A stretch of DNA of 64,000 bases from an uncultured Candidatus Saccharibacteria bacterium. GTDB taxonomy: Bacteria; Patescibacteriota; Minisyncoccia; JACPXH01. This document shows positions 3,430 through 63,530 of this stretch, piece after piece; position 1 is the stretch's first letter; each line of letters starts with the position of its first letter. The notes under the pieces are model-generated. The model had not been told where the DNA came from. It ran no database searches and was given only the letters and a program-made list of their open reading frames with translations. Where the stretch lies: contig CAYPCM010000001.1 of NCBI GenBank assembly GCA_964409225.1, forward strand, positions 32,173-96,172, written 5' to 3'. Both the position numbers and the translations under genes were made by a program.

Positions 3430-4449
3430 ATGGAGCATACTTCTGAATTGCGTCGCGATCTTGTTTCTGGCGATTGGGTGGTCGTAGCCACTGGTCGTGC
3501 CAAGCGCCCGGGCGCTTTTAAGCATTTCGAACCGGAAAAGCCCGCCCCTAAAGAAGGGTGTCCTTTTGAAGATCCCAAGGGTGAGGTCCTATTGGCGTAC
3601 GACGTCGAGGGCAGGGTATTGGGTGAACACAACCGCAGCGATTGGTTTGTGCAGTCGGTGGCAAACAAGTTCCCGGCTTTCGGCACCGGACGCTGCGATG
3701 AAACCCACGAGGTGGGCCCCTACGTTGTTTTAGACGGCGTCGGCGCCCATGAGGTGGTGATTACGCGCGATCACGAGCGCCATTGGGGTCATTTCACCAA
3801 GCCCGAAGCAGGCGCGGTTATGAAGGCCTATCACGCGCGCTACGTGCATCTACTTGAAGCAGCGTGCGTGCGTTATGTTTCCATCTTCCATAATCACGGC
3901 AGTACTGCCGGCGCTTCGGTTTGGCATCCGCATTCTCAAATTATCGCCATCCCCGTGATTCCGCCCGACGTGGGGCGCAGCTTGGACGGTTCGCGCCGGT
4001 ATTGGTCTGAAAACAAGATTTGCGTTCATTGCGCCATGATGGCGTGGGAAGTCGAAGACAAACAAAGGATTGTTTTTGAAAACGAACACGCGATCGCCTT
4101 TTGTCCGTTTGTGTCCAGAACAGCCTTTGAGGTTAGGATTTTCCCGAAACGCCACGAACCATTCTTCGAGCGTTCTTCCGACGTTGAACTTGCCGATACG
4201 GCCGCGGCAGTCCTTGGGGCCCTAAGCCGCATTGCCGAAAAACTCAATGAACCGGCGTACAACTTTTTCGTGCATACAGCGCCCTCCACTGCCGCGGCCG
4301 ACTACGCGCACTATCACTGGCACATCGAAATTCTCCCGAAGACCCAAATTTGGGCCGGGTTTGAGCTGGGTACGGGGATAGAAATTTCTACGATTTCGCC
4401 AGAGGTTGCGGCGGCTTACCTGCGCGGCGAAGTTGCGGACGAGGCATGA
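3430..4449 (+). CDS. galT: Galactose-1-phosphate uridylyltransferase (HIT family)
   Basis: HIT-like HxHxQ motif (WHPHSQII), CPFC/zinc site (EGCPFE), duplicated half-barrel length ~340 aa. Confidence 0.7.
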   Translation: MEHTSELRRDLVSGDWVVVATGRAKRPGAFKHFEPEKPAPKEGCPFEDPKGEVLLAYDVEGRVLGEHNRSDWFVQSVANKFPAFGTGRCDETHEVGPYVVLDGVGAHEVVITRDHERHWGHFTKPEAGAVMKAYHARYVHLLEAACVRYVSIFHNHGSTAGASVWHPHSQIIAIPVIPPDVGRSLDGSRRYWSENKICVHCAMMAWEVEDKQRIVFENEHAIAFCPFVSRTAFEVRIFPKRHEPFFERSSDVELADTAAAVLGALSRIAEKLNEPAYNFFVHTAPSTAAADYAHYHWHIEILPKTQIWAGFELGTGIEISTISPEVAAAYLRGEVADEA

Positions 4450-5114
4450 CCTTTGCCGGCGCTTCCATAATCGGCGCAATCACGCTTGGCGTCGTGCGCT
4501 TGATTGAGCTTGGCGGCTATGGCGGCGTTCTCGTACTTATGACGCTTGAAAGCGCCGGCGCGCCCATTCCTTCGGAAATAATTATGCCTTTTGCGGGGTT
4601 TTTGGTGGCTCAAGGCAAGCTCAATTTTTGGCTGGTGGTGACGATGGGCACGCTTGGCAACCTGCTTGGATCGCTTTTGCTCTACTACATAGGCAATGTC
4701 GGCGGCAGGCCATTTCTGGAGAGATACGGCAAATATTTTCTTTTATCCAAGCGGGAACTCGAGCGTTCCGAGCGGTGGTTCAAACGGTACGGCGGCCCGA
4801 TTGTTTTCTTTGGCCGGCTGCTACCGGTCGTGCGAACGTATATTTCGCTGCCAGCCGGGCTTTCGCAGATGCCGCTTGGGCAGTTTGGTCTCTATACTTT
4901 TGTTGGTTCGGCGCCGTGGTCTGTTCTTTTTGCTTGGCTTGGAGTGAGATTGGGTGCGAATTGGACCGTGATTGAATCGTATTTCAGGCAGTTTGACATC
5001 GCGATTGTTGTAGCTATCGTGTTATTGATTGGGTGGTGGATTTGGCGCCAGCGAAAGGCGAAGATCCGCAGAGTCGTTGAAGAGACGATCGAGGAGATAC
5101 AAAAGCCCATCTGA
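4446..5114 (+). CDS. DedA/SNARE-associated (TVP38) family membrane protein
   Basis: Multiple TM helices and DedA-type motifs (GRLLPVVRTYISLPAG); ATGA overlap with galT stop. Confidence 0.7.
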   Translation: MTFAGASIIGAITLGVVRLIELGGYGGVLVLMTLESAGAPIPSEIIMPFAGFLVAQGKLNFWLVVTMGTLGNLLGSLLLYYIGNVGGRPFLERYGKYFLLSKRELERSERWFKRYGGPIVFFGRLLPVVRTYISLPAGLSQMPLGQFGLYTFVGSAPWSVLFAWLGVRLGANWTVIESYFRQFDIAIVVAIVLLIGWWIWRQRKAKIRRVVEETIEEIQKPI

Positions 5115-7220: not shown

Positions 7221-7408
7221 TATACCAGATAACCGTGGAGGGCATGGCTGTGATAGAATGGAGTCGGAGTGAGAAATACGAAATCCTAAACTCTAAATCC
7301 GAAACAAAACCCAATACTTAAATTCCAAATCCAAAACGCTTGGGTTTTTGAGATTTGTTGACTGGATATTGTTTAGGATTTCGATATTCGAATTTAGGAT
7401 TTTGTGCC

Positions 7409-8584
7409 ATGTGGCGTACGCTTGATGACTTAGACGTGACCGGCAAACGCGTGCTGTGGCGCGTTGATTTTAACGTGTCGATCGGCGAAAGCGGCCGTAT
7501 TGATCAGCAAAATGATTGGCGAATGCGCGCGGCACTCCCAACGCTTGAAACGCTTCTCAAGCACAAGGCGCGAGTAATCGCCGTCAGCCATTTGGGCGAG
7601 CCGGCCGAGCGCGACGCCAGGTTATCTTTGGCGCCGGTGGCAAGCCATTTATCAAAGCTTGCCGGTCAGCGGATTAGGTTTGTGTCGAGTGTCGTGGGGC
7701 CGGAAGCAGTGGCAGCGGCAGATAAGCTTGAGCCCGGCGAAATTATGATGCTTGAGAATGTTCGCTTCGAGCCCGGGGAAATAGTGAACGATCCAAAGCT
7801 TGCCGATCAACTGGCCGCGGGTGCGGAAATGTTTGTATGCGATGCTTTTGGTGTCGCGCATCGGCCGCACGCTTCCCTCGTCGGTCTGCCAGCGCGTCTG
7901 CCGTCGGCGGCCGGAGAGCTGATGTGTCGTGAGGTGAAAACACTCGCTGATTTTATGACGAGTCCGCCCCGGCCGGCAGTGGTCATTCTCGGAGGCGCAA
8001 AGGTCGGCACTAAACTGGCGGTGCTGGCGAGGATTATGGCTGTGGCGGACTATGTGCTTTTGGGAGGCGTGCTGGCCAACACGGTCCTTGCGGCCAAGAA
8101 CTTCAATGTGGGCGCTTCACCCGTTGATAAGACGGTTATTCCTGCCTTGCAGAAGCTGGATCTGGCTTCGTCTAAAATTCTTCTGCCGCAGGATGCGACC
8201 GTGGGGTTAGCGACTGATTCGCAGCAAGGGGTGAGACAAGTGGACGTGGCGCGTGTGAGAGCCGATGAAGCGATGTATGACTTGGGCGAGCGCACAATTG
8301 CCCTGTACCAAGAGGCAATCACCGGCGCGGCCAGCGTTGTTTGGAACGGACCCATGGGACTCGCAGAAGTTGATCCGTTTGCTACAGGTACCGTCGCTTT
8401 GGCAGAGGCAATCGCCGGCAGACGCATTCCCGCGATTGTGGGTGGCGGCGACACCGTGGCGTTTTTGATGCGTCGGGGTTTGGCGTCCTCGTTCTCCCAT
8501 ATTTCAACCGGCGGCGGGGCCATGCTCGCGTTTCTGGCAGGTGAGCGCTTGCCGGCTCTGGAGGCGTTGGGGTACTATAGTTAA
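7409..8584 (+). CDS. pgk: Phosphoglycerate kinase (start set at MWRTLDDL, 7409)
   Basis: RVDFNV, MLENVRFEPGE, VILGGAKV, GGGDT motifs throughout. Confidence 0.9.
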   Translation: MWRTLDDLDVTGKRVLWRVDFNVSIGESGRIDQQNDWRMRAALPTLETLLKHKARVIAVSHLGEPAERDARLSLAPVASHLSKLAGQRIRFVSSVVGPEAVAAADKLEPGEIMMLENVRFEPGEIVNDPKLADQLAAGAEMFVCDAFGVAHRPHASLVGLPARLPSAAGELMCREVKTLADFMTSPPRPAVVILGGAKVGTKLAVLARIMAVADYVLLGGVLANTVLAAKNFNVGASPVDKTVIPALQKLDLASSKILLPQDATVGLATDSQQGVRQVDVARVRADEAMYDLGERTIALYQEAITGAASVVWNGPMGLAEVDPFATGTVALAEAIAGRRIPAIVGGGDTVAFLMRRGLASSFSHISTGGGAMLAFLAGERLPALEALGYYS

Positions 8585-12037: not shown

Positions 12038-13927
12038 TCAGTAGTTCGCGGCAGAGTACTCTCTGCCGGGCCATAGGAACAGGTTGTTCGTCGAAACGTT
12101 CTCGTTGCGGCTGGGGTCGTCGCTCGGCTCGATTGCGTCAATCTCGGCCGCGAACGCAACGATAACGTACCATTCGTCCCGGAAGAGGTTTGCCGGAAGC
12201 GTAAAGCTCGGCGTGGTTGAGGCCGGGCAATTGTATATTGCCCGGCGCGGCGCAAACCGCGTATAGACCCAACACCAGTATCGCGAAGCTCCCGGCACCG
12301 GCTCGAACCAGAAACGCGTCGGGGATACGCTGTCAATGTTGAGCCCTTGCGGGAGTGGGAGCTGGCGGGGTCGATCGAGCGAGTGCGACGCTCCCCGCAC
12401 CGTGCGGCCGTCGGTCGTCGTGACCGTGATGTCAAAGACCCCGGACTCGCCTCCGTAATCTTGTTCGAAGATGTAGCTGGCGTTGCTGTTCGGGAGACGC
12501 CAGTCGAGGTCGATTACGATTACTTCGCCGGTCCGGCGGCTCCGCGCTTCAACGCGCGAAACGTAGTCAGCGGCTGATCCGCGTTCATCTGAGACGATGA
12601 CCTCGATGTGGATTCGGTATCCCGATGTCCATGGCGATTCCCACCGGTAGGGGTTGTTGTAGGTCGAGACGAAGATGTTTTCAATCGCCGTGCGAGCGCT
12701 ATCCGGAGGGGCGATCTGAAAGGTTGTCTGGGCGAGGTTTGAGACGCGGGTGCCGTCGTAGGGACTCTGGGTGGGGCGCACGAGGAGCGCGTAGAAGGTA
12801 TACTCCCCATCGCTGCCGCGCCCGAGCGAATCGAAGCGGATGGGATACAGTTCCTCGCTGTCGAGGCGATGCGCCGCAGGCGTTGCTGTAATGGTCCATC
12901 CTGGCTCTCCAGATTCTATGGCGGTTTGGAATACGAACTGCCTGCTCGGGGTGAGGATGGCGGTGTAGAGGTCGGCAACGCGATTGCCCGAAGACGCCGA
13001 GAGTTTGATTCGAAGCGGTGAGCCGATGCGCGTCCTTGGTGTTTCTGTCTTGAGCACGAGCGCCACTGGCCGGCGAACCACCTCTGCGGTAATGGCGATT
13101 CGGACGTTATCGTCAGCCGTCTCGCACAGATGGTTGAATCGGTTGAGGGTGCACGCATTGAGTAGGTTGATGCGCACTTCCGCATGGAGCGGCACCCGCA
13201 GTTCGGCGCTCGCCAAGTTCTGGCTGCGTTCGTTCACCACGTCGTCGTTGCCCACGATGATGGAGCTGTAGGCAATCGGGGTGTCGCGGTAGCGGTAGAG
13301 GGCGTCGGTGTTGAGCTGGTTGAGTTCGAGGGAGTTCGGTTGCAGAATGCGTACGGCCGTGATTGCCCCCGAGAAACCAGCGACCGCGGCAATATTCGCA
13401 AAGTTAGACCCCAGGTGCGGGGTTCCCACCGTGATGATCTGGCTTACCTTGGGCGTGCGAGCGTAGCTTAAGTACGCCCGGCACGCGAGCCCGCCCATGC
13501 TGTGGCCGACGCAAATCGCCTTTGATTTGCCGGTAAGCTCGAGGATAAAGTTGATGACACCCTCGAGCTCTTCGCCTTGCTGCTGGTAGGTGAGATCTTT
13601 TCCGCTCGTGAACGAGACCGTGTAGATGTCGCCCGGTTTGATGCGGCCGCCAAAGCGGGCATCTGGGAAGTAGTAGATTTGCCCGTTGCGGTATCGAGCT
13701 TGGCCGCCGAAGGTCCAGCCTTGGCTCGTGACGGATGCGAGGAATTCGTCCCACGTGCTCGCGTCGCTGTTGAGTCCATGGACGAGGATAATCGGGTGCT
13801 CGGGCGGCGAAAGCGCCGCCGCCGCGCCAATCCAGCCGGCTACGAGCAGAGCTGCCAGAAAGCCGATACTGCGTTTCCAGCTGCGCGGTTGAGTTGTGAA
13901 AAGAGCTGCCCATTCCAGTCGTCTCAT
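12038..13927 (-). CDS. Secreted alpha/beta-hydrolase (lipase/esterase-like) with large C-terminal beta-rich extension
   Basis: N-terminal signal/TM (LAALLVAGWIGAAAA), nucleophile elbow GHSMGGL, ~630 aa. Confidence 0.6.
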   Translation of the reverse strand: MRRLEWAALFTTQPRSWKRSIGFLAALLVAGWIGAAAALSPPEHPIILVHGLNSDASTWDEFLASVTSQGWTFGGQARYRNGQIYYFPDARFGGRIKPGDIYTVSFTSGKDLTYQQQGEELEGVINFILELTGKSKAICVGHSMGGLACRAYLSYARTPKVSQIITVGTPHLGSNFANIAAVAGFSGAITAVRILQPNSLELNQLNTDALYRYRDTPIAYSSIIVGNDDVVNERSQNLASAELRVPLHAEVRINLLNACTLNRFNHLCETADDNVRIAITAEVVRRPVALVLKTETPRTRIGSPLRIKLSASSGNRVADLYTAILTPSRQFVFQTAIESGEPGWTITATPAAHRLDSEELYPIRFDSLGRGSDGEYTFYALLVRPTQSPYDGTRVSNLAQTTFQIAPPDSARTAIENIFVSTYNNPYRWESPWTSGYRIHIEVIVSDERGSAADYVSRVEARSRRTGEVIVIDLDWRLPNSNASYIFEQDYGGESGVFDITVTTTDGRTVRGASHSLDRPRQLPLPQGLNIDSVSPTRFWFEPVPGASRYWCWVYTRFAPRRAIYNCPASTTPSFTLPANLFRDEWYVIVAFAAEIDAIEPSDDPSRNENVSTNNLFLWPGREYSAANY

Positions 13928-14006
13928 CGCTCATCCTCCTTCTCTGTGCGGGCGATGCGGTTGCGGTTGGGTGCTGAGTTGATGTTCAATCAAATACTCG
14001 TTGGTG

Positions 14007-14111
14007 TCAACCCCGTTAGAAAACAGAACTTTGTCTCATCGAAAGTAAGAACTCTTTAGTAGACTGACAAGTCGAAGAAAGCATGACCAGCTAGTTTTCT
14101 AACGGGGTCAA
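14007..14111. repeat. Palindromic element related to family B (CCCCGTTAGAAAAC ends)
   Basis: CAACCCCGTTAGAAAAC …105 bp… GTTTTCTAACGGGGTCAA inverted termini; lies in lipase/membrane-protein divergent spacer. Confidence 0.55.
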
Positions 14112-14127
14112 TCACCTGCGATGCTGG

Positions 14128-14577
14128 ATGCGAGTGGTTTCCGGTGGTATATTGTGCGTAGAACGCTTTATGAGTAGTTCAAGGATACGATACGCGATCG
14201 TTGGGGTGGTGCTCCTTACGGTTGCATTGCTCATTGTCGTCGGTCCAATCCGGGACTACGTTTTTGCGGGTGAGGCAGGAGATCTTCTCTGGGGAGCGCT
14301 GGTCGTATTCGTTGCCGTTCCCTGCCTTATCGTTGGTATGCTTTTCCTCACCCGCGCCACCTTTGGGCAGGCGAGCGATGCCGTTGGTGCGAGTTCCCCG
14401 CCCGCAAGCGCCTTGCGCCGGCCCCTGAAGCCAACCGTGCCGATTGCGATCGGCGCAATCATCGTGGTGATTGCTGCTTTCTTCTTGCCAAAGGAATTTC
14501 GCGGACTTGAATATCTCGGGTATATTGCCGGGTTTATTCTGCTTGCGATCGGCGCGATCGAAGCGATTTGGCGGTAG
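14128..14577 (+). CDS. Small integral membrane protein (hypothetical)
   Basis: Four predicted TM segments; no recognisable motif. Confidence 0.35.
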   Translation: MRVVSGGILCVERFMSSSRIRYAIVGVVLLTVALLIVVGPIRDYVFAGEAGDLLWGALVVFVAVPCLIVGMLFLTRATFGQASDAVGASSPPASALRRPLKPTVPIAIGAIIVVIAAFFLPKEFRGLEYLGYIAGFILLAIGAIEAIWR

Positions 14578-14783
14578 CACGGCTCGGTAGTGTCATCGGT
14601 TTGCCAAACGCGGTACTTCTTTGCAGAGTACTTTCAGGAGGTACGGAAGCTGTTTTCGGTTGTGACGACGTGGGGAAGGAGGTGAAGGCAAGCACCTTGT
14701 CATTTTGCACAGCAGTAGGGGGGTGTTCCGTGGTCGCCGCGGATGCGGCGCTGCGGACGATTTTGTAAGAAAGGAGGGCGGCG

Positions 14784-15935
14784 ATGCGCATCGTGAAGGC
14801 GGCGGCGGTGTTCGCAGTGCTCGTGGCGGTACTCGTGAGCTGTACTCCCATGGCCCAAGAGTTTCAACGTTGGACTGCGCCGCAGGCCACGGTAACCGGC
14901 GGCTCGGCCCAGGCAGTGGCCCAGGCGCAGTTGGAGCCCTATAACGGCCCCAAGCCGCGGGTCGTGGTGGCGCGCTTCGCCAACAAGACCGGTACTCACT
15001 ACCAAGTGCGCTACACGCGCGGCACGATGACTGCCGGCGATCCGCTCGGTGAGGGGATGTCGGATCAGTTCGTCACGGTGCTCATGGAGACGGGTCGCTT
15101 CATTGTCCTCGGAAGTAAAGAGGACCTTGGAGACGCTATCTCTGAGCAGGACTATGACCCGACTCGCTTTAACCCCGGCACGTTAGCGGCCAAAGGCGGA
15201 CTCGAGGCGGCCGATCTGCTTATCATTGGTGCCGTAACCGGGTTCAAGCCCTCGCAGGCCTCGGTCGGCGGAGGCGCTGGCTACGTTACGAGCGGTTGGG
15301 GGTCTCTGATTGCCATGGCCGTAACAGCTGCGATGGCCCAAGACTACGTGGCCATTGATTTCCGGGCTATCGAGGCGCGGACGCGCCGTGTGGTCTGGGC
15401 GAGTCGCGTGGAAGGCACTGCCCGAGACTTCAGCGCCGGCATCGGGGGAATCTTTAGCCCGCTCCTTGCCGGTGTCGGTGGCAGCTACTCGACGCCGATT
15501 GACCAAGCCACCAGAGCAACGATGGTGAAGGCGACTGAACAGCTCTGGATGAGTTTGGATCGTGGCGGGTTCATCCGACAGTGGGCGGCACAACCGGCAC
15601 CGCAGCCAGCCGTTGCGACGGTCGCTGGTCCGGCCGCGCCGCCAGCGCCGAATTCCGCTCCGCCGCAGGCAGGCACGGTTCCGATTGCGCCTGCAGTTGC
15701 TCCGGCCGTGCCCCTAAAGGCGGTACCAGCGGTTGGCGCGCCGCTTGCTGGTATGGTCAAGGTGAAGGCCTCAAGCGCGATCTTGCGCGACAGCCTGAAC
15801 GGTCAGCGCGTCGCTTCGGTGGCGCAGGGTGCGGCTCTTAAGAAGGTCGCAGAACGCAAAGTCGCCGAACACACCTGGGTCCAAGTCGAGTACAACGAGC
15901 AGGAGGTTTGGATCCGCGCAGACCTCGTTGAATAG
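14784..15935 (+). CDS. CsgG-family lipoprotein with C-terminal SH3b-like domain
   Basis: Lipobox (LVSC), CsgG-like PRVVVARFANKTG…GEGMSDQFVTVLMETGRFIVL…AADLLIIGAVTGF, then Pro/Ala linker and SH3b-like tail. Confidence 0.6.
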   Translation: MRIVKAAAVFAVLVAVLVSCTPMAQEFQRWTAPQATVTGGSAQAVAQAQLEPYNGPKPRVVVARFANKTGTHYQVRYTRGTMTAGDPLGEGMSDQFVTVLMETGRFIVLGSKEDLGDAISEQDYDPTRFNPGTLAAKGGLEAADLLIIGAVTGFKPSQASVGGGAGYVTSGWGSLIAMAVTAAMAQDYVAIDFRAIEARTRRVVWASRVEGTARDFSAGIGGIFSPLLAGVGGSYSTPIDQATRATMVKATEQLWMSLDRGGFIRQWAAQPAPQPAVATVAGPAAPPAPNSAPPQAGTVPIAPAVAPAVPLKAVPAVGAPLAGMVKVKASSAILRDSLNGQRVASVAQGAALKKVAERKVAEHTWVQVEYNEQEVWIRADLVE

Positions 15936-15960
15936 CATCGTTCTTTCGCAGTCCGATGTT

Positions 15961-15999
15961 CCGCCCCGACGCCTTCGCGTCGGGGCGGTTTCCTTTTTC
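15961..15999 (+). terminator. Intrinsic terminator (copy 1 of duplicated hairpin)
   Basis: CCGCCCCGACG-ccttc-GCGTCGGGGCGG followed by TTTCCTTTTTC. Confidence 0.6.
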
Positions 16000-16060
16000 A
16001 AGACCTCGGCGCGTTGCGATCACGCTGCGTTTTCTACATCTGGCATATGCACCTGACATG

Positions 16061-16069
16061 TGGTATGAT
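16061..16069 (+). promoter_or_regulatory. Extended -10 promoter candidate (TGgTATGAT) for AbiE-like operon
   Basis: TGGTATGAT 9 nt upstream of GGGG SD and ATG 16078. Confidence 0.3.
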
Positions 16070-16077
16070 AAAGGGGT

Positions 16078-16332
16078 ATGCGCAAGCCCAAATCAACCCC
16101 AAAAATTCGTTTTCGGCAGTCGCTCTTCTGGGATGTGGATCCTAAAACCATTCATCCCAAACGCCACGCTCGCTACATCATCGAGCGCATTCTTGATTTT
16201 GGCAATGACCGCGAGGTGCGGTGGCTCTGGCAGACGTACCCTCGAACGCTCATCGCCGAGGTCGTCCAACACTCGCGGGTGCTTCATAATCAGTCGCGCG
16301 CTTTATGGACGCTGCTCAGTCGCGGGGCGTAA
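16078..16332 (+). CDS. Small partner protein of AbiEii-like nucleotidyltransferase (putative antitoxin)
   Basis: 84 aa, 28-nt overlap with downstream NTase gene; position equivalent to AbiEi. Confidence 0.4.
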   Translation: MRKPKSTPKIRFRQSLFWDVDPKTIHPKRHARYIIERILDFGNDREVRWLWQTYPRTLIAEVVQHSRVLHNQSRALWTLLSRGA

Positions 16333-16985
16333 CCTGGCATGTTGAGGTGTTGCCGCGGACGGTACGCCAGGCCCTTCGGCGTCTCGCCGGAGCGAGATGG
16401 CTTAAGCGTTCGAAATGGTATCTTGCGGGCGGCACAGCCCTCGCCCTTCAAGCGGGGCACCGCGCTTCGGTTGACCTTGATTTTTTTACGCCTCAAAAAA
16501 CGTTTTCCGCAGACCAGCTGCTCGCTCATTTTCCAAAGGAATCGTGGACAGCTGATGTGGTGCGCGAAGGCACCGTCTATGGTCGGTTGCTCGGAACACG
16601 GGTGAGTTTCATTGCTTACCCCTATTTCGTTGCCCGAGCGCCGTATCGATGGTACGGCTCAGTGCGGGTACTCGCGCCGGCTGATATCGCCGTGATGAAA
16701 ATTGTAGCTATTAGCCAACGCGGCCGAAAAAGAGATTTTGTTGACCTCTATTGGTACTGCCGCCACCGTGAACCGCTCGGCGACATTGTGGAGCGACTGC
16801 GAGACCAATATCCCACCGTGGCCCACAACTATCACCATATTATCAAAAGTCTTGCGTATTTTGCCGACGCTGAAGCCGAGCCCATGCCGAAACTTTTTTT
16901 TGACGTAACGTGGAAAGACATAAAAAAGTTTTTTGAGCGCGAAGTGTCGGCCGTCGCGCGCCGGAAGCTTCTGGGCTTGCGCTGA
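16305..16985 (+). CDS. Nucleotidyltransferase, AbiEii/AbiGii-like toxin family
   Basis: Pol-beta-type NTase motif YLAGGTALALQAGHRASVDLDFF (GG…S.DxD) and C-terminal helical domain. Confidence 0.6.
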   Translation: MDAAQSRGVTWHVEVLPRTVRQALRRLAGARWLKRSKWYLAGGTALALQAGHRASVDLDFFTPQKTFSADQLLAHFPKESWTADVVREGTVYGRLLGTRVSFIAYPYFVARAPYRWYGSVRVLAPADIAVMKIVAISQRGRKRDFVDLYWYCRHREPLGDIVERLRDQYPTVAHNYHHIIKSLAYFADAEAEPMPKLFFDVTWKDIKKFFEREVSAVARRKLLGLR

Positions 16986-17008
16986 AAAGGTGTGAGATAA
17001 CGACTCAG

Positions 17009-17045
17009 CCGCCCCGACGCCTTCGCGTCGGGGCGGTTTCTCTTA
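17009..17045 (+). terminator. Intrinsic terminator (copy 2, identical stem to 15961..15988)
   Basis: CCGCCCCGACGCCTTCGCGTCGGGGCGGTTTC identical over 32 nt to copy 1. Confidence 0.55.
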
Positions 17046-17160
17046 CGCGGCAATTTGACGCACGGTAAGGCAGTTTGTATAGTCAGAGCGGAGATGCACT
17101 TTCCCAATCGCTTTGTCGTTGGGCAGAAACCAAGGAAGGACAACCGGAGAGGAGGAGCCC

Positions 17161-18072
17161 ATGCGCAGCATGTTGGCGGCGGTAGTTCTAGTGGCGGCAA
17201 TCCTTGCTCAAGTCCAAGGGGCGTTCGGGGCGGATGAGCCCCCAACGGTTCGCACGATGGCCGGCAGGCACCAGCAGGTGGGCAACACCGAGGTGTCCGG
17301 GGCGTTCTCCGCAACGCTGTTTGCCGACGGGAGCTTCACGGTACGGTTTAATCTGGACTCCTTGGACTGCGACTTCATCAACTTTCGGGCGAACCACGAG
17401 GCGAGCTTTATCGAGTGGTCTCTCGGCCTCCCGCTCGTCATCACGACGTTTCGGACCGCGGGAGGATTCACCCTCGATGCAGCTACGCTCGTACTGGATG
17501 CGCCGTTGTGGATTCATCCCTCCACCGGCGCCCTCATAAACCGGGGATTGTTTCGTCGGTGTGGCGTTGACGATATGCTCGTCGCGTTCCGGCTTACCAT
17601 CCGTTCGGCGAACTTCGCCCCACTCGGTCGGTACGACGGCGACATCAGCGCAACACTGTTGAGCGGGGCGACCCTGCAGCGATCGTTTAGCGGCACCTTC
17701 TCTGCGGTCTCGCCCATGCCGTTTAGGCCGGTCATCGGTTTTCGGGTTGATCCGACGTATCGGGTGGCTGGAGAATGCCTTAACATCCAGTGGCAGTCGT
17801 TACCTGGTGCCGCGTACTACGCGCTCGAATACGTCGGGCCGTCTCGCAGATTCACTGGTCGCGTATTTTCCGCCACGCCGGAACTCGAGCGTAACCAAGG
17901 GTGGGGATCGGTTCTCCTGCCGTCAGCCACCGCCGCCACGGTCTGCACCTCACAAAACACGCCCGGGGGCAGGTATGAGTTGCGGGTGTTCGGATTGGAT
18001 GGTGCCCTCAATGTTGCTCCGGGCACTGGCTCTTCAGTTCCGGTAACGGTGAGTGTAAGTGCGCCGTATTGA
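17161..18072 (+). CDS. Secreted hypothetical protein
   Basis: Signal peptide MRSMLAAVVLVAAILAQVQGAFG; no recognisable motif. Confidence 0.45.
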   Translation: MRSMLAAVVLVAAILAQVQGAFGADEPPTVRTMAGRHQQVGNTEVSGAFSATLFADGSFTVRFNLDSLDCDFINFRANHEASFIEWSLGLPLVITTFRTAGGFTLDAATLVLDAPLWIHPSTGALINRGLFRRCGVDDMLVAFRLTIRSANFAPLGRYDGDISATLLSGATLQRSFSGTFSAVSPMPFRPVIGFRVDPTYRVAGECLNIQWQSLPGAAYYALEYVGPSRRFTGRVFSATPELERNQGWGSVLLPSATAATVCTSQNTPGGRYELRVFGLDGALNVAPGTGSSVPVTVSVSAPY

Positions 18073-18096
18073 CCTGCGGCGCGCCTGCGCCGCCAA

Positions 18097-18134
18097 CCCG
18101 CCCGACGGGAGTCCGTCGGGCGGGTTTCTTTTCT
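18097..18134 (+). terminator. Intrinsic terminator
   Basis: CCCGCCCGACGG-gagt-CCGTCGGGCGGG + TTTCTTTTCT. Confidence 0.6.
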
Positions 18135-18207
18135 CGGGCACCGGGAGACGGCACATAAAACCAATACTATGCCGTATCCGTTCGTGTGATGATTACGGCC
18201 CCGCAGC

Positions 18208-18326
18208 TTGACCCCGTTAGAAGTCCATAGTTCGGCAATCTATTGTGGGAGCCTAAAGGCGAAGCCGCCTAACGGCTTTCATTTATCTTCTTTGGGGGAC
18301 ACGATTTAGACTTCTAACGGGGTTGA
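18208..18326. repeat. Palindromic MITE-like element, family B, copy 2
   Basis: TTGACCCCGTTAGAAGTC…GACTTCTAACGGGGTTGA perfect 18-bp TIRs; homologous to 527..643. Confidence 0.75.
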
Positions 18327-18384
18327 CGCCGGCGGCGTGCGCGGCAATACTTACATTGATTAACCTTAATCAATAAGACCTTTT

Positions 18385-18678
18385 ATGGTTCAGCGACTCC
18401 CTCTCACCAAAGCCCGGATCAACCTCGGCGCCATCGTCAAGCGAGTCCACCTCAACAAAGAATATTTCATTCTCGAGAAAGACGGCATCCCCGTGGCTGG
18501 CCTCATGGACATTGACGAGTTTGAGGACTACTTGGAACTCCGTGATCCCAAGGTCCGTGAGCACATCCGCAAGAGCAACGCGGAGTACCTCGCGGGCAAG
18601 AGTCGGCCGTACCGAGCCCTCCTCGCGGAACTCAAACGCGAGGAGCAACGGGGGACAAAGCGGCGTCAGAAGGCATGA
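18385..18678 (+). CDS. Phd/YefM family antitoxin
   Basis: Small; PLTKARINLGAIVKRV…ILEKDGIPVAGLMDIDEFED typical Phd/YefM; 4-nt overlap with toxin. Confidence 0.75.
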   Translation: MVQRLPLTKARINLGAIVKRVHLNKEYFILEKDGIPVAGLMDIDEFEDYLELRDPKVREHIRKSNAEYLAGKSRPYRALLAELKREEQRGTKRRQKA

Positions 18679-18965
18679 CGGCGCTTTTTCTCGTTCGCTC
18701 CTCGGCGCGATTCGAGCGGCTCTTCCGTAAACTTTTTCGAAGGCACCCCGAGCTCCGTGCTCTCCGCGATCGCGTCGGCGACATCCTCGAGACCGACCCC
18801 ACCAACCGCACCCGGACCCACCACATCAAGAAGCTCGGAGCCGTCCCACTGGGTGAAGGCCAGTGGCGGTTCTTTCTCGGCCGTTTCCGATTCCGCTATG
18901 ACATCTACGGTCGTGAGGTCGTGCTTCAATACTGCGGTCTCCGGCGCGAAGATACGTACCGGTAG
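18675..18965 (+). CDS. RelE/ParE family toxin
   Basis: C-terminal RFRYDIYGREVVLQYCGLRRE RelE/ParE signature. Confidence 0.7.
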   Translation: MTALFLVRSSARFERLFRKLFRRHPELRALRDRVGDILETDPTNRTRTHHIKKLGAVPLGEGQWRFFLGRFRFRYDIYGREVVLQYCGLRREDTYR

Positions 18966-19117
18966 TACCGCGCCTGAGTTCGAGCATTTGCTTCTCCCGG
19001 GCGCGCAGGCGCTACATCTGTCGGAAACATTTCCAAACTTCGGCGGTAGACGGTGGCGTTAAAGAAAACATTGGCTCAGCGGCTGATGAAGATTCGGAAA
19101 AGCATATCATCGTTGTA

Positions 19118-20197
19118 TTGCGTTTTCCATGCCTTGTCGAGCGTGGGCATCGCGCGGAAAACCTGTGGACAAGATGGGGGAATGGCGTGCGAAGTTCGGA
19201 TGCGTGTGGGCCTCGTAGCGTAATGTTGGTGCTCTTGATGTTCCGCCCTGAAGCGCATAGGCGCTTCAGGGCGGTCTCTTTTACGCTGACCTTGCGTGTT
19301 ATGATGCGGCGTACCGTGGAACCAACACCGGACATCCAAATCCTCGCGGCCACGAGCGACCATCGCGAGAGCATCCGCGAGTTGTACCTTCTCGTCGGCG
19401 GGCCGCACGATCACATTCTCCCGTTCCTCCAGCAACCATTCCCTACCGAGGATTTCGTGCCGTTCGTAGCCGTGCACGATTACGCGGTAGTCGGCGTGGG
19501 GTGCGCATTCGTGCTGGAGCCGTACGTGTGGTTGATGGGTTTGCGTGTGCACCCCGACTGGCGCAACCACAAGATTGGTCAGCAATTGGTTGAGCGCAGG
19601 GTGCAGTTTGCCGCGGCGCGGTGCCAGCCGGTAAAAGCCGTCGTGCTCGCGGCCAACGCCCCGGTGGTGCGCGTGTTCACGAATGCGGGTTTTGCCAGCC
19701 AGCCGGGGTTTACGCTCATGGAGGCAACCATTGGCGCGGTGCGTCCGAGCCATTTCTGGGATCGGTCAGTCGTTCGTGCCGCGACCGCAGCCGAGCGCGC
19801 CGAGGTTGCATCGTTTCTCAACGTCAACTATCAGCTTGCGTCTGATCACGTCAACCTCTTTGGCGAAGATTTCGTCTGGCGGCCAATCAGCTCCGCTAAT
19901 GAGCTTGGCCGGCTCGTTGCGAGCCGGCGGCTGCTCGTAAGCCGCGGCGAGGCAGGCACGGTGAGAGGTGTTGCGGTCGTAAACCCAAAGCCAGATCGCA
20001 CTGTTGAAATCGGCAGAATCTGGGGCGAGCCCGCGCCATTCCTGTGGCACATCATCGAGACGGCCGCACCACCGCGCCTGTGGTGGTATCTCTCCGGAGA
20101 AACAGAAGAAGAGCGCGCGCGCCAATTCCGGTTCCAGATTTCCCGCACCGGGACGAGCGAGCGCCGGTATCTTATTTTTACGAAGGATTCTGCCTGA
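19118..20197 (+). CDS. GNAT family N-acetyltransferase (start uncertain)
   Basis: GNAT motif A region HPDWRNHKIGQQLVERRVQFAAARC…, two acetyltransferase-like halves. Confidence 0.5.
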   Translation: MRFPCLVERGHRAENLWTRWGNGVRSSDACGPRSVMLVLLMFRPEAHRRFRAVSFTLTLRVMMRRTVEPTPDIQILAATSDHRESIRELYLLVGGPHDHILPFLQQPFPTEDFVPFVAVHDYAVVGVGCAFVLEPYVWLMGLRVHPDWRNHKIGQQLVERRVQFAAARCQPVKAVVLAANAPVVRVFTNAGFASQPGFTLMEATIGAVRPSHFWDRSVVRAATAAERAEVASFLNVNYQLASDHVNLFGEDFVWRPISSANELGRLVASRRLLVSRGEAGTVRGVAVVNPKPDRTVEIGRIWGEPAPFLWHIIETAAPPRLWWYLSGETEEERARQFRFQISRTGTSERRYLIFTKDSA

Positions 20198-39283: not shown

Positions 39284-39748
39284 GCGCAGAAATAGCTCAC
39301 GCGCGGACCAGACGTGCTATAATCAGTAGCAATGAGGAATATATTTCCTCAACTCTTCGATGTCCGTCCCAGAGGGCGAGATGGGGAGGTGGACTTCGAA
39401 AAAATCAAACGAGTTGAGGCGGTGTTGGATTTGACGAGTAAGGAAAACGATCTGGCAGAGCCGGTGCGTTTAAATCAGGCGCGGGCGTTGCCGGCGGACG
39501 CCGCGTCCGCCGAACTCACCGCCGAAAAGCTCCTGGCAGAGCTTACGGCGATTTACGAGCGCGACGACACCTTAGAGGCCGAGCTGGCGCGTGAGCGGTC
39601 TTACCCCGTTAGAACACCACCAACTTCTGTTGGTGGTGACTATACAATTGTTGATGAGACAGCGCCACCATGCTCTGAAAGCCACGCGCCACCGATTAAA
39701 GTCGCGTTAGTACCAGAGTCGGCAGAACCTCTTGCAGTCAATAACTTT

Positions 39749-62696: not shown

Positions 62697-63530
62697 ATGT
62701 TCATGGCGCAGTTTTCGATTTTGACGCTCAACCTCCGGCACGGTCAGGGGCCACGGGTCGCTGCTGGCGAGGCGCCGTGGTCCTTTGGCCAGCGTCGCGC
62801 AACCATGCGCGCCCATGCGGCGGCGATCGGTTCGTTCATCGGGCAGATGACGCCGCAGCCGGATATCGTGTGTCTGCAGGAGACGAATGCTGCCGCGTTT
62901 TTTTGGCCGGATATTCTTAGTATTATTCGCGAAAGGTCTGGCTATCAATACGTAGCGGCTTCTCCCCAAAAAGTTTTGCCGCATAATAATGGAATTTTAA
63001 GTCGGTTTCCATTCAATCGCGTGGTCTCGCGCCAGTTTCGCAAACTGCCGATGGTTATGGCGGGGTGGCGCGCGATATGCTATTCAATCAACCGTGGGTT
63101 TGTCGCAGCAGAAATCGAGGGGGTCGGGACTGTCGTTTCGACGCACCTCGATCCATATGTTCCCGCGCTGCGGTTTGGCCAAGCGCGCGAGCTGCGGCAA
63201 GCGCTGCCGGCGCGCAATATCATCATCACCGGAGATTTCAATCCGTTGACGTGGGATGAAGAGTCGCTCAAGGTGGCGGGGGAAGGGCTTACGACGGCGC
63301 CGCCGATTGATGCAGAACACTTCGCGTCGTTCGCAACTTGGCCAGCCCCGTTAGAAACCCAGTTTCTAACGGGGCCAGCTGGCGTAATGTCCACCGAAGT
63401 AGTACCAGAATGCCGGCTCGATTACGTGCTCGTTTCGCCGGGCTTGCGCTTCGTCTCTGCCGAGCGCGTGTTCACCGGCCACACGGATCATTACGGTGTC
63501 GTAGTTACCGTTGAAAGGCGCTCGCCATGA
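62697..63530 (+). CDS. Endonuclease/exonuclease/phosphatase (EEP) family protein
   Basis: N-terminal …ILTLNL…, CLQETN, GDFN, C-terminal TDHYGVVV (SDHxPV-like). Confidence 0.6.
   Translation: MFMAQFSILTLNLRHGQGPRVAAGEAPWSFGQRRATMRAHAAAIGSFIGQMTPQPDIVCLQETNAAAFFWPDILSIIRERSGYQYVAASPQKVLPHNNGILSRFPFNRVVSRQFRKLPMVMAGWRAICYSINRGFVAAEIEGVGTVVSTHLDPYVPALRFGQARELRQALPARNIIITGDFNPLTWDEESLKVAGEGLTTAPPIDAEHFASFATWPAPLETQFLTGPAGVMSTEVVPECRLDYVLVSPGLRFVSAERVFTGHTDHYGVVVTVERRSP
63345..63375. repeat. 13-bp-stem CCCCGTTAGAAA hairpin (family B-type end motif) embedded in EEP coding sequence
   Basis: GCCCCGTTAGAAA-cccag-TTTCTAACGGGGC perfect inverted repeat inside ORF. Confidence 0.5.

Follow-up and report, generated by a model that had tools for sequence, protein, structure and literature searches.

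Restriction-modification complexes are known to enter genomes by insertion with long (>30 bp) and variable target duplications, without mobility genes and in some cases with the duplication overlapping the 3' end of a gene; such insertions have been described mostly from naturally competent species, and flanking repeats are enriched around these complexes over ordinary genes (PMC2853133). Insertion with long target duplication is credited to Nobusato et al. 2000, as that work is cited in Furuta, Abe & Kobayashi 2010, NAR 38:2428 (PMC2853133). Here we describe a comparable arrangement in a 64,000-nucleotide (nt) stretch of contig CAYPCM010000001.1 from an uncultured Candidatus Saccharibacteria bacterium (hereafter the window, meaning the whole of this 64-kb stretch), in which a presumed toxin-antitoxin pair, made up of a DUF6922 small protein and an AbiEii-like nucleotidyltransferase (NTase), lies between two identical copies of a 32-nt terminator hairpin, behind a gene for a CsgG-family lipoprotein and ahead of a gene for a secreted protein of 303 amino acids (aa). 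The hairpin pair is best read as the footprint of a cassette insertion at a toxin-antitoxin hotspot, and we think it probable that the CsgG terminator was doubled because a ~1.0-kb toxin-antitoxin cassette recombined between the CsgG gene and the 303-aa gene and duplicated local sequence. A footprint of this kind is already known for restriction-modification genes, and for DUF6922-AbiEii pairs across the candidate phyla radiation (CPR, or Patescibacteria) it appears to be unreported in the literature that we searched, where nothing specific on repeats flanking toxin-antitoxin genes turned up.

As in the restriction-modification insertions, a small and presumably addictive complex that itself encodes no mobility gene is accompanied by variable local direct repeats of more than 30 bp, which sometimes lie over the 3' end of the upstream gene and are enriched around the complex. 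The differences are that the cargo is a DUF6922-AbiEii pair in CPR bacteria, that the target in the window is exactly a terminator hairpin, and that no empty-site pair of strains was found. In addition, double-strand breakage by the cargo, which has been proposed for restriction-modification, is not an obvious property of a nucleotidyltransferase toxin. The gene pair itself resembles the type IV AbiE (AbiEi-AbiEii) and MenAT (MenA-MenT) systems in its AbiEii Pfam domain, its GG and DxD motifs, and its overlapping two-gene operon with the small gene first. Unlike in AbiE, the partner is an 84-aa DUF6922 protein rather than the winged-helix AbiEi (COG5340), and the toxin-antitoxin role is here read from genes and models.

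The locus also invites comparison with three kinds of mobile unit. Minimal mobile elements of Neisseria occupy hotspots between conserved genes and are exchanged by transformation and homologous recombination (e.g. PMC3787668). At our site, similarly, an AbiE-like cassette, HicBA, Phd with a toxin, or no cassette at all is found at the same position between backbone genes. Minimal mobile elements are not known to require a duplicated target sequence or to leave one behind, whereas the junctions here bear repeated hairpins or gene ends. With integron arrays and pdif modules the locus shares co-oriented, compact cassettes, some of them toxin-antitoxin units with promoters of their own, that carry a copy of the same imperfectly conserved palindromic or repeated segment almost directly past the stop codon. 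Unlike integron attC sites, however, the hairpin is a perfect 12-4-12 structure of 28 nt, and inspection (no attC covariance model was used) found no R/L boxes, extrahelical bases, or GTTRRRY or RYYYAAC boxes; the repeats are also locus-specific host sequence, often coding 3' ends, and the fetched flanks (window about 4784-28072) yielded no record of an IntI integrase. Among insertion sequences (IS), duplication of a palindromic target reportedly has a precedent in IS1630, an IS30-family element of Mycoplasma fermentans. That element has its transposase, whereas the cassette encodes none.

Two identical terminator-type hairpins and the module between them

The first-pass annotation of this DNA had reported identical 32-nt hairpins on either side of a two-gene module consisting of a small partner and an AbiEii-like NTase, and both statements hold. 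The sequence CCGCCCCGACGCCTTCGCGTCGGGGCGGTTTC stands on the plus strand at 15961-15992 and again at 17009-17040, with 32/32 positions identical, and the open reading frames (ORFs), which overlap by 28 nt, together with their Pfam matches confirm the module between the copies. No further copy of CCGCCCCGACGCCTTCGCGTCGGGGCGGTTTC was found at up to three mismatches in the 64 kb, and none in 100 shuffles; the window holds these two and one relative at 69% identity. The identity ends sharply on both sides, with GATGTT against ACTCAG at the left edge and CTTTTTC against TCTTACG at the right. In each copy a perfectly paired stem of 12 bp, 11 of them G-C, is closed by a 4-nt CTTC loop and followed by a T-rich tail (tails TTTCCTTTTTC and TTTCTCTTACG), and the predicted folding energies are −28.1 kcal/mol for the left copy (z −5.2) and −30.5 kcal/mol for the right (z about −5). 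The left hairpin follows the CsgG stop codon by 25 nt and the right one follows the AbiEii stop codon by 23 nt. The insert that they flank is 1016 bp long and contains both genes and a promoter, an arrangement that fits the >30-bp repeat and <20-kb insert of PMC2853133.

By its G+C-rich stem, its U-rich tract, and its sense-strand position after a stop codon, the repeat reads as an intrinsic (Rho-independent) terminator. Pairing is kept in orthologous hairpins: GACGC/GCGTC has become GACCC/GGGTC in two hairpins of the related locus L089 (hpA and hpB), an A:T pair has been inserted in L142, and the hairpin of L097 contains three G.U pairs, which leave pairing possible in the plus-strand RNA only. 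A redundant copy in L089 (hpC) has decayed (z −0.9). In this small sample (L089, L142, and L097), a terminator role is favoured over a purely DNA-level site, because pairing is conserved and the L097 G.U pairs work on the plus-strand RNA only. The left copy would end the CsgG transcript and shield the cassette from read-through, and the right copy, which precedes the downstream gene's own promoter-like site, would end the cassette transcript and so insulate that gene. The first-pass annotation had also considered that the hairpin might belong to a generic terminator family, which is not what the 64 kb contain: of hairpins of the type CCGCCC(C)GAC...GTC(G)GGGCGG there are just the three at 15961, 17009, and 18098, and the other terminators are unrelated to them in sequence. 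A search of 13900-19500 against Rfam gave only sub-threshold chance matches on hairpins. When metagenomes were scanned for the 12+12 stem, whatever its loop, 44 contigs came back; all belong to unrelated high-GC organisms, differ in loop and flanks, and encode no homologous proteins, so that the scan is uninformative on the copy number of the hairpin in the source genome.

The module between the hairpins is a compact and compositionally distinct cassette, with a GC content of 54.6% against 60-64% in its neighbours. The GG (G42 G43) and DxD (D57-L58-D59) motifs of the NTase are invariant among 32 homologues, and its AlphaFold2 model (predicted local distance difference test score, pLDDT, of 92) has as its closest folds JHP933 of H. 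pylori (4ok0) and MenT1 (8an5) and MenT4 (6y56) of M. tuberculosis, each at a probability of 1.0 and a template modelling score of about 0.5. The single-sequence structure model of the DUF6922 protein is helical and of low confidence (pLDDT 63), and this protein was left out of the fold search. Neither cassette protein found a match in a sequence search of the PDB. PADLOC gave only weak AbiEii matches and nothing for the 84-aa partner, which also lacks any AbiEi Pfam match that would point to the AbiEi antitoxin; NCBIfam gave no match, and no paper naming DUF6922 was found in the literature searched. From fold and gene order, the module is presumed to be a toxin-antitoxin pair that works like AbiE/MenAT with a variant pairing. 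To judge by its fold, the most likely activity of the toxin is that of MenT toxins, nucleotidylation of the acceptor ends of tRNA, and the DUF6922 protein would neutralise or repress it.

The source is the metagenome-assembled genome of a groundwater bacterium, whose proteins are entered under 'Candidatus Parcubacteria bacterium', and the exact cassette proteins were recorded from NCBI assemblies only and not from the Logan contigs of related runs, which do contain both flanking genes; an assembler that had spliced the cassette in via the shared 31-32 nt of the hairpin would leave such a picture. Two assemblies nevertheless include the cassette: contig JACPLK010000001.1 (GCA_016186535.1) differs from the window at 2 of 21,152 positions and contains both hairpin copies. 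The window extends past the end of that contig, its proteins lie on two recorded contigs, the longer of 109.8 kb, and it appears to come from a second, separate assembly. Logan k=31 contigs with the exact CsgG gene end at 15990 or 15992 (SRR12113430, SRR12113383), and those with the exact 303-aa gene begin at 17009 or 17011 (SRR12113422, SRR12113430). Breaks at these points are what a 32-nt repeat with two left and two right contexts in the graph would produce, and the contig ends in SRR12113430 fit a true two-context repeat. The protein of a neighbouring Phd cassette is likewise missing from Logan, which makes the absence of the AbiEii cassette there uninformative, and in L097, independently, a cassette 80% identical to this one immediately precedes a homologue of the 303-aa gene. 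An artefactual duplication is unlikely, and a splice through the hairpin we regard as scarcely credible.

Toxin-antitoxin cassettes at the same site in relatives

In three relatives the site lies within a conserved backbone of TIM, an oxidoreductase, PGK, a response regulator, RecJ, a NUDIX protein, and a hydrolase (minus strand), followed by the 303-aa gene, which has a variable stretch on either side, and then by an acetyltransferase and a beta-propeller gene. In L095 the hydrolase is followed directly by a 305-aa gene, with no cassette, and a single hairpin stands before the acetyltransferase, where the window has a Phd cassette. L091 has other small genes ahead of its 304-aa gene and a Phd cassette behind it, and neither L095 nor L091 has CsgG. 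These relatives show that toxin-antitoxin cassettes have a gain-and-loss hotspot at precisely this intergenic site.

The most informative order is that of L089: CsgG, hpA, HicB, HicA, hpB, a 40-nt leader, a 66-aa ORF, hpC, and the promoter and gene of a 304-aa protein. Hairpin hpA is CCGCCCCGACCCATTGGGTCGGGGCGG, and hpB has the same stems with a loop 17 nt longer, which means that the HicBA cassette is bracketed by two copies of the local hairpin, the right one beginning 8 nt past the toxin stop. The leader is 89% identical to window 15993-16032 (by blastn, window 15979-16032 against L089 7462-7516, 89% over 56 columns), and the 66-aa ORF behind it is weakly DUF6922-like. Hairpin hpC is a decayed copy of a longer unit, comprising the last ~33 nt of CsgG, a 25-nt spacer, and a hairpin of the window type with its CTTC loop, for a duplication of 86 nt, and is followed by TTGTATGAT, the equivalent of the downstream promoter in the window. 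The CsgG 3' end, the hairpin, and the downstream promoter were therefore once contiguous. By comparison of these sequences, hpA/hpB are the counterpart of the left copy in the window, and hpC, which is the resident one next to the downstream promoter, is that of the right copy. At L089 7191-7419, HicA has an in-frame TAG (…VLK*LGF…), and the adjoining 66-aa DUF6922-like ORF has no NTase partner; in this locus the toxins have decayed and the antitoxins persist.

L097, a distant relative, has a cassette 80% identical to that of the window (78% at the nt level over window 16058-16986), in which the TGTGGTATGAT motif of the cassette promoter is kept. The gene directly behind it is a homologue of the 303-aa gene with 43% identity; the G.U-compensated hairpin stands upstream of the cassette, and there is none downstream. 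Hairpin duplication is thus frequent and not universal, L097 and the Phd cassette being exceptions.

The missing downstream hairpin in L097 would also fit a terminator acquired separately, in which case the two terminators of the window would be related without having been duplicated by the insertion: the cassette would have brought a terminator of the local family, and short-tract gene conversion or selection would have made or kept the copies identical. Related hairpins do end several units in the hotspot and in relatives (window 18095, L089 8936, L095 8943). Hairpin types shift position between genomes, with hpB of L089 resembling the terminator behind the 305-aa gene of L095, and the derived stem variant shared by hpA and hpB suggests concerted evolution. 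The 32/32 identity, however, takes in the loop and the tail and exceeds what a terminator needs, which counts against separate acquisition. Besides the hairpin, the fossil in L089 includes the spacer and the 3' end of CsgG, neither of which would come with a terminator brought by the cassette, and the family-wide excess of repeats set out below involves coding 3' ends and not terminators alone. We therefore hold separately acquired terminators to be unlikely.

Flanking repeats across the DUF6922-AbiEii family

The NTase has 3036 homologues at E ≤1e-10, and a scan of species-representative genomes confirmed 363 loci, the source genome not being among its matches (best match 65%). Comparisons across the family use the best 80 of these 363 loci, almost all from CPR/Patescibacteria, and in 80/80 of them a DUF6922 homologue lies immediately upstream of the NTase. 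Alignments between the two flanks scored at least 40 in 9 of 63 cassettes, compared with 7 of 286 shifted pseudo-cassettes and 6 of 192 pseudo-cassettes placed at gene boundaries (p 0.003 for the latter); three of the six gene-boundary matches were themselves mobile or toxin-antitoxin units, namely two IS200-like transposases and another AbiEii pair. When the 90 nt past the toxin stop were compared with the 320 nt before the cassette, a score of at least 32 was reached at 10 of 73 loci (72 from other CPR species, and the window) and in 4 of 508 control windows from the same loci (p 3.6e-7); in three of these four windows the match was a further copy of the same repeat.

The repeats are locus-specific and range from ~27 to 120 nt: 120 nt in L055, ~110 in L079 (including a terminator), 70 in L030, 50 in L045, and 35-65 in L076, L028, L020, L041, and L059. 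On the left, the repeated sequence is usually the end of a co-oriented upstream gene (its last 30-120 nt) or the terminator of that gene, and the gene ends duplicated in this way belong to MetRS, a release factor, a class II aminoacyl-tRNA synthetase, GAPDH, an NYN protein, and an AAA ATPase. The right repeat begins 1-13 nt past the stop in most loci, against 23 nt in the window. Leaders are 13-112 nt long, and most of the repeat-flanked members examined have a -10-like motif upstream of the start (TATAAT, TAGAAT, or TAAAAT, mostly with TGn before it). Apart from this promoter, the repeat-positive loci show no terminal inverted repeats and no conserved cassette ends. Upstream neighbours show no orientation bias, 54 of 72 being co-oriented against a baseline of 0.70. 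At least three copies of the repeat separate successive small cassettes in L041, L076, L078, and L089.

With L055 excluded, 28 of the 47 differences between repeat copies fall at third codon positions, and the right copies in L020, L028, and L076 still encode the same C-terminal peptide and stop. Simple neutral decay of once-identical repeats was set aside in view of this third-position bias and the three peptide-keeping copies. At least some repeat pairs would instead have diverged under coding constraint, either because one copy came from the orthologue of another genome or because the allele of the anchor gene was replaced later; since allelic replacement after insertion could give the same third-position pattern, the pattern does not settle the mechanism.

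A classical transposon making a fixed staggered cut of ~32 bp would account for identical direct repeats immediately flanking an insert of ~1 kb, and the first-pass annotation had taken the hairpins for a target-site-duplication-like footprint of ~30 bp. In its transposase form, that part of the earlier proposal falls. No called gene in the fetched flanks has an integrase or transposase Pfam match, the insert holds no ORFs other than the toxin-antitoxin pair, terminal inverted repeats are absent (best alignment score 22, at background level), the repeats vary from 27 to 120 nt across the family, and several pairs differ mainly at third codon positions, unlike in neutral decay. A fixed-stagger transposon is largely refuted, and we consider it very improbable. 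Recombination-based insertion is preferred over a fixed staggered cut because the repeats vary in length, are locus-specific, and have in some pairs diverged.

Mobilisation in trans is a further alternative, in which the hairpins would be recombination sites of a non-autonomous element, either of the IS200/IS605 type (like the palindrome-associated transposable elements, PATEs, with a Y1 transposase as helper) or with a tyrosine-recombinase site, as in Xer-dependent pdif modules and the integrase-less, att-flanked cis-mobilizable elements (CIMEs). The two ends of IS200/IS605 elements carry similar hairpins in direct orientation, an architecture that the directly repeated perfect palindromes here resemble, and CPR relatives encode IS200-like Y1 transposases flanked by identical hairpin-containing direct repeats (48/48 in L049; also L027). 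With inverted arms of 10 bp on either side of an 8-bp centre, the hairpin could also pass for a tyrosine-recombinase core. Arrays in which the same segment follows each cassette (L041, L076, L078, L089) resemble tandem accretion at an attachment (att) site, and short repeats with synonymous differences that rebuild the 3' ends of MetRS, release factor, and GAPDH genes are typical of attL/attR. On the other side, tblastn with two CPR Y1 transposases found no homologue in the 64-kb window or in the loci of relatives, the flanks lack a recombinase match as noted above, and no strong integrase stands among the top 25 of the 68 neighbour families of repeat-positive loci. The left hairpin is the orthologous host terminator of CsgG and not owned by an element, the hairpin does not by inspection fit attC features, and the repeats at other loci are locus-specific and mostly non-palindromic, which would call for many different helpers. 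Taken together, these points make mobilisation in trans quite unlikely.

More speculatively, DUF6922-AbiEii cassettes might actively home to 3' ends and terminators (MetRS, release factor, aminoacyl-tRNA synthetase, GAPDH, and CsgG) with duplications of 30-120 bp and form integron-like arrays. Integration may then be carried out by the cassette products (one a Pol-beta-type nucleotidyltransferase, the other small, helical, and perhaps able to bind DNA) or by a dedicated host pathway that has gone unrecognised. The tight right junction, repeats that rebuild gene ends, and the failure to find a recombinase are compatible with this, but there is nothing positive for catalysis of integration by the cassette itself, and we give active homing very little credence. 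The alternative to it is passive and rare host recombination, with retention through addiction.

We favour this passive route, that is, insertion by host recombination, because the cassette encodes no recombinase. The incoming DNA would already have included a duplicate of the terminator or 3' end of the upstream gene, and the likeliest host route would be Campbell-type insertion-duplication or homology-facilitated illegitimate recombination. Addiction, in the form of post-segregational killing, would then penalise loss of the cassette by recombination between the repeats; given such a penalty on deletion, repeat-flanked toxin-antitoxin insertions would persist where neutral ones collapse.

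Several observations weigh against insertion with duplication of the terminator. An empty site, in which a single hairpin would separate CsgG from the 303-aa gene within one contig, was not recovered among the contigs of CsgG and 303-aa homologues; L142 has CsgG and a single orthologous hairpin, and its contig stops 76 nt later. The 40-nt leader is common to L089, where a different ORF follows it, and the junction that bounds the AbiE genes on the left may therefore be near 16033-16057 rather than at 15992/15993. From these comparisons, the history of the site was probably multi-step and included cassette replacement. The L097 cassette without a downstream hairpin and the adjacent Phd cassette without flanking repeats point the same way, as does the presence of flanking repeats in only about 14% of family loci. 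The repeats in L055 and L078 could be remnants of tandem paralogues or of internal gene repeats, and the upstream repeat of L030 is missing from two orthologous loci that have the cassette. Finally, both the recombination mechanism and survival through addiction are steps that we infer. The earlier proposal that the cassette inserted at, or duplicated, a terminator therefore stands in part: the copies of one terminator, the hotspot, and the family-wide flanking repeats bear it out, while a clean empty site is missing. Its suggested comparison with relatives yielded L095, which lacks the cassette, and no contig of the expected empty form. Its statement that such bracketing is typical of defence and toxin-antitoxin cassettes is right insofar as the arrangement recurs (HicBA in L089; 10 of 73 loci) and too broad in that L097 and the Phd cassette lack it.

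Some loci of the family have features of interest in their own right. In L055, the 3' end of an AAA_5-family gene is present in three ~82%-identical copies (3569-3688, 4889-5008, and 7334-7451), and in the copy behind the AbiE cassette the changes are mostly GG to AA (Gly to Asn codons) and strand-asymmetric. The IS200-like Y1 transposase genes (Pfam Y1_Tnp) at L049 4786-5567 and L027 5998-6742, which came to light as controls in the flank test, have hairpin-containing direct repeats on both sides; the L049 repeats match at 48/48 positions, and those of L027 are 32 nt long and differ by one gap and one mismatch. Further toxin-antitoxin-type genes lie directly behind the DUF6922-AbiEii cassette at L078 5067-6612 and L014 4682-5419. 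Those of L078 are a second AbiEii-like NTase and an MNT-type NTase, and neighbours at other repeat-positive loci include a HepT-like RNase and a further AbiEii match (not assigned to individual ORFs); in L078 and others, such small toxin-antitoxin arrays are separated by copies of the same repeated segment.

Neighbouring features and biological meaning

The features of the locus are collected in Table 1. The CsgG-family protein (curli secretion channel type) has a long Pro/Ala-rich linker and an extra C-terminal domain, and its distribution is very narrow, with two non-self contigs only at E <1e-40. For the 303-aa protein only five homologues were found, and it has no Pfam or NCBIfam match.

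Table 1. Positions of features at the repeat-flanked cassette and its surroundings in the window.
Feature	Position	Strand	Remarks
CsgG-family lipoprotein gene, 383 aa, anchor gene	14784..15935	+	Pfam PF03783, E 3.5e-25; orthologues in L089 (81% aa) and L142 (85% aa) with orthologous hairpin
Left 32-nt repeat	15961..15992	+	putative CsgG intrinsic-terminator hairpin; TTTC tail running on T-rich; orthologous hairpins with compensatory changes
40-nt leader after left hairpin	15993..16032	+	conserved in L089 behind hpB
Cassette promoter-like site	16040..16069	+	CTGGCA, 18 nt, TATGAT, extended -10 TG
DUF6922 small protein, 84 aa, presumed antitoxin/regulator	16078..16332	+	Pfam PF21956, E 2.4e-17
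AbiEii/MenT-like nucleotidyltransferase, 226 aa, presumed toxin	16305..16985	+	Pfam PF08843, E 1.4e-19, 71.5 bits (cut-off 22.5)
Right 32-nt repeat	17009..17040	+	would end cassette transcript; tail aligns with tail of L089 fossil hpC
Downstream promoter-like site	17055..17083	+	TTGACG, 17 nt, TATAGT; 10/12 matches
303-aa secreted protein gene, signal peptide, conserved backbone	17161..18072	+	syntenic orthologues in L089 (67% identity), L091 (62%), L095 (58%)
Third hairpin-family member, putative terminator of 303-aa gene	18095..18126	+	69% identical to 32-nt repeat
Neighbouring Phd/YefM antitoxin (18385-18678) and 96-aa ORF (18675-18965)	18385..18965	+	Pfam PF02604, E 1.6e-8

The Phd cassette, part of the same hotspot, has no counterpart in L095 and is followed by a different hairpin at 19243-19274. 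Its 96-aa ORF, which overlaps the Phd/YefM stop by 4 nt, has no Pfam, PADLOC, or NCBIfam match; by position and size, and by a RelE/ParE-like pattern seen on inspection, it resembles a cognate toxin. At this place, the gene calls that came with the contig have an 87-aa ORF on the opposite strand instead. The call for the acetyltransferase (319 aa) starts at ~19238 and overlaps the strong terminator hairpin at 19243-19274, and the true start probably lies ~60 nt further downstream, the L095 orthologue being 298 aa long.

The Phd cassette of the window and the AbiE cassette of L097 each have, immediately upstream, a repeated element of ~100-113 nt. It occurs at window 18201-18333, 520-650, 14000-14118, and 63345-63375, with a solo end at 39604, and at L097 80-212. 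Its terminal inverted repeats are TTGACCCCGTTAGAAGTCC...GACTTCTAACGGGGTTGA, with a GGCGAAGCCGCCTAACGGCTT hairpin between them; its right end provides a TTGAC -35-like box, and CCCCGTTAGAA has 10 matches at up to one mismatch where 1.09 are expected. It has no match in Rfam and may be an element like the miniature inverted-repeat transposable elements (MITEs), or a structured RNA.

If the doubled CsgG terminator does record an insertion, then insertion with long and variable target duplication, without a dedicated recombinase, would move toxin-antitoxin and defence cassettes as well, beyond restriction-modification complexes, and would be at work in CPR/Patescibacteria, whose very small genomes have few classical mobile elements. 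Insertion of this kind would explain why near-identical minimal cassettes are found behind unrelated essential genes, and why a cassette comes with ready-made insulation in the form of a terminator on each side. For annotation, a repeat of the upstream gene's end right past the toxin stop would be a signature of such events, by which cassette hotspots and insertions of recent date could be recognised in metagenome-assembled genomes. That addiction keeps repeat-flanked insertions from being deleted is an idea testable in model bacteria.

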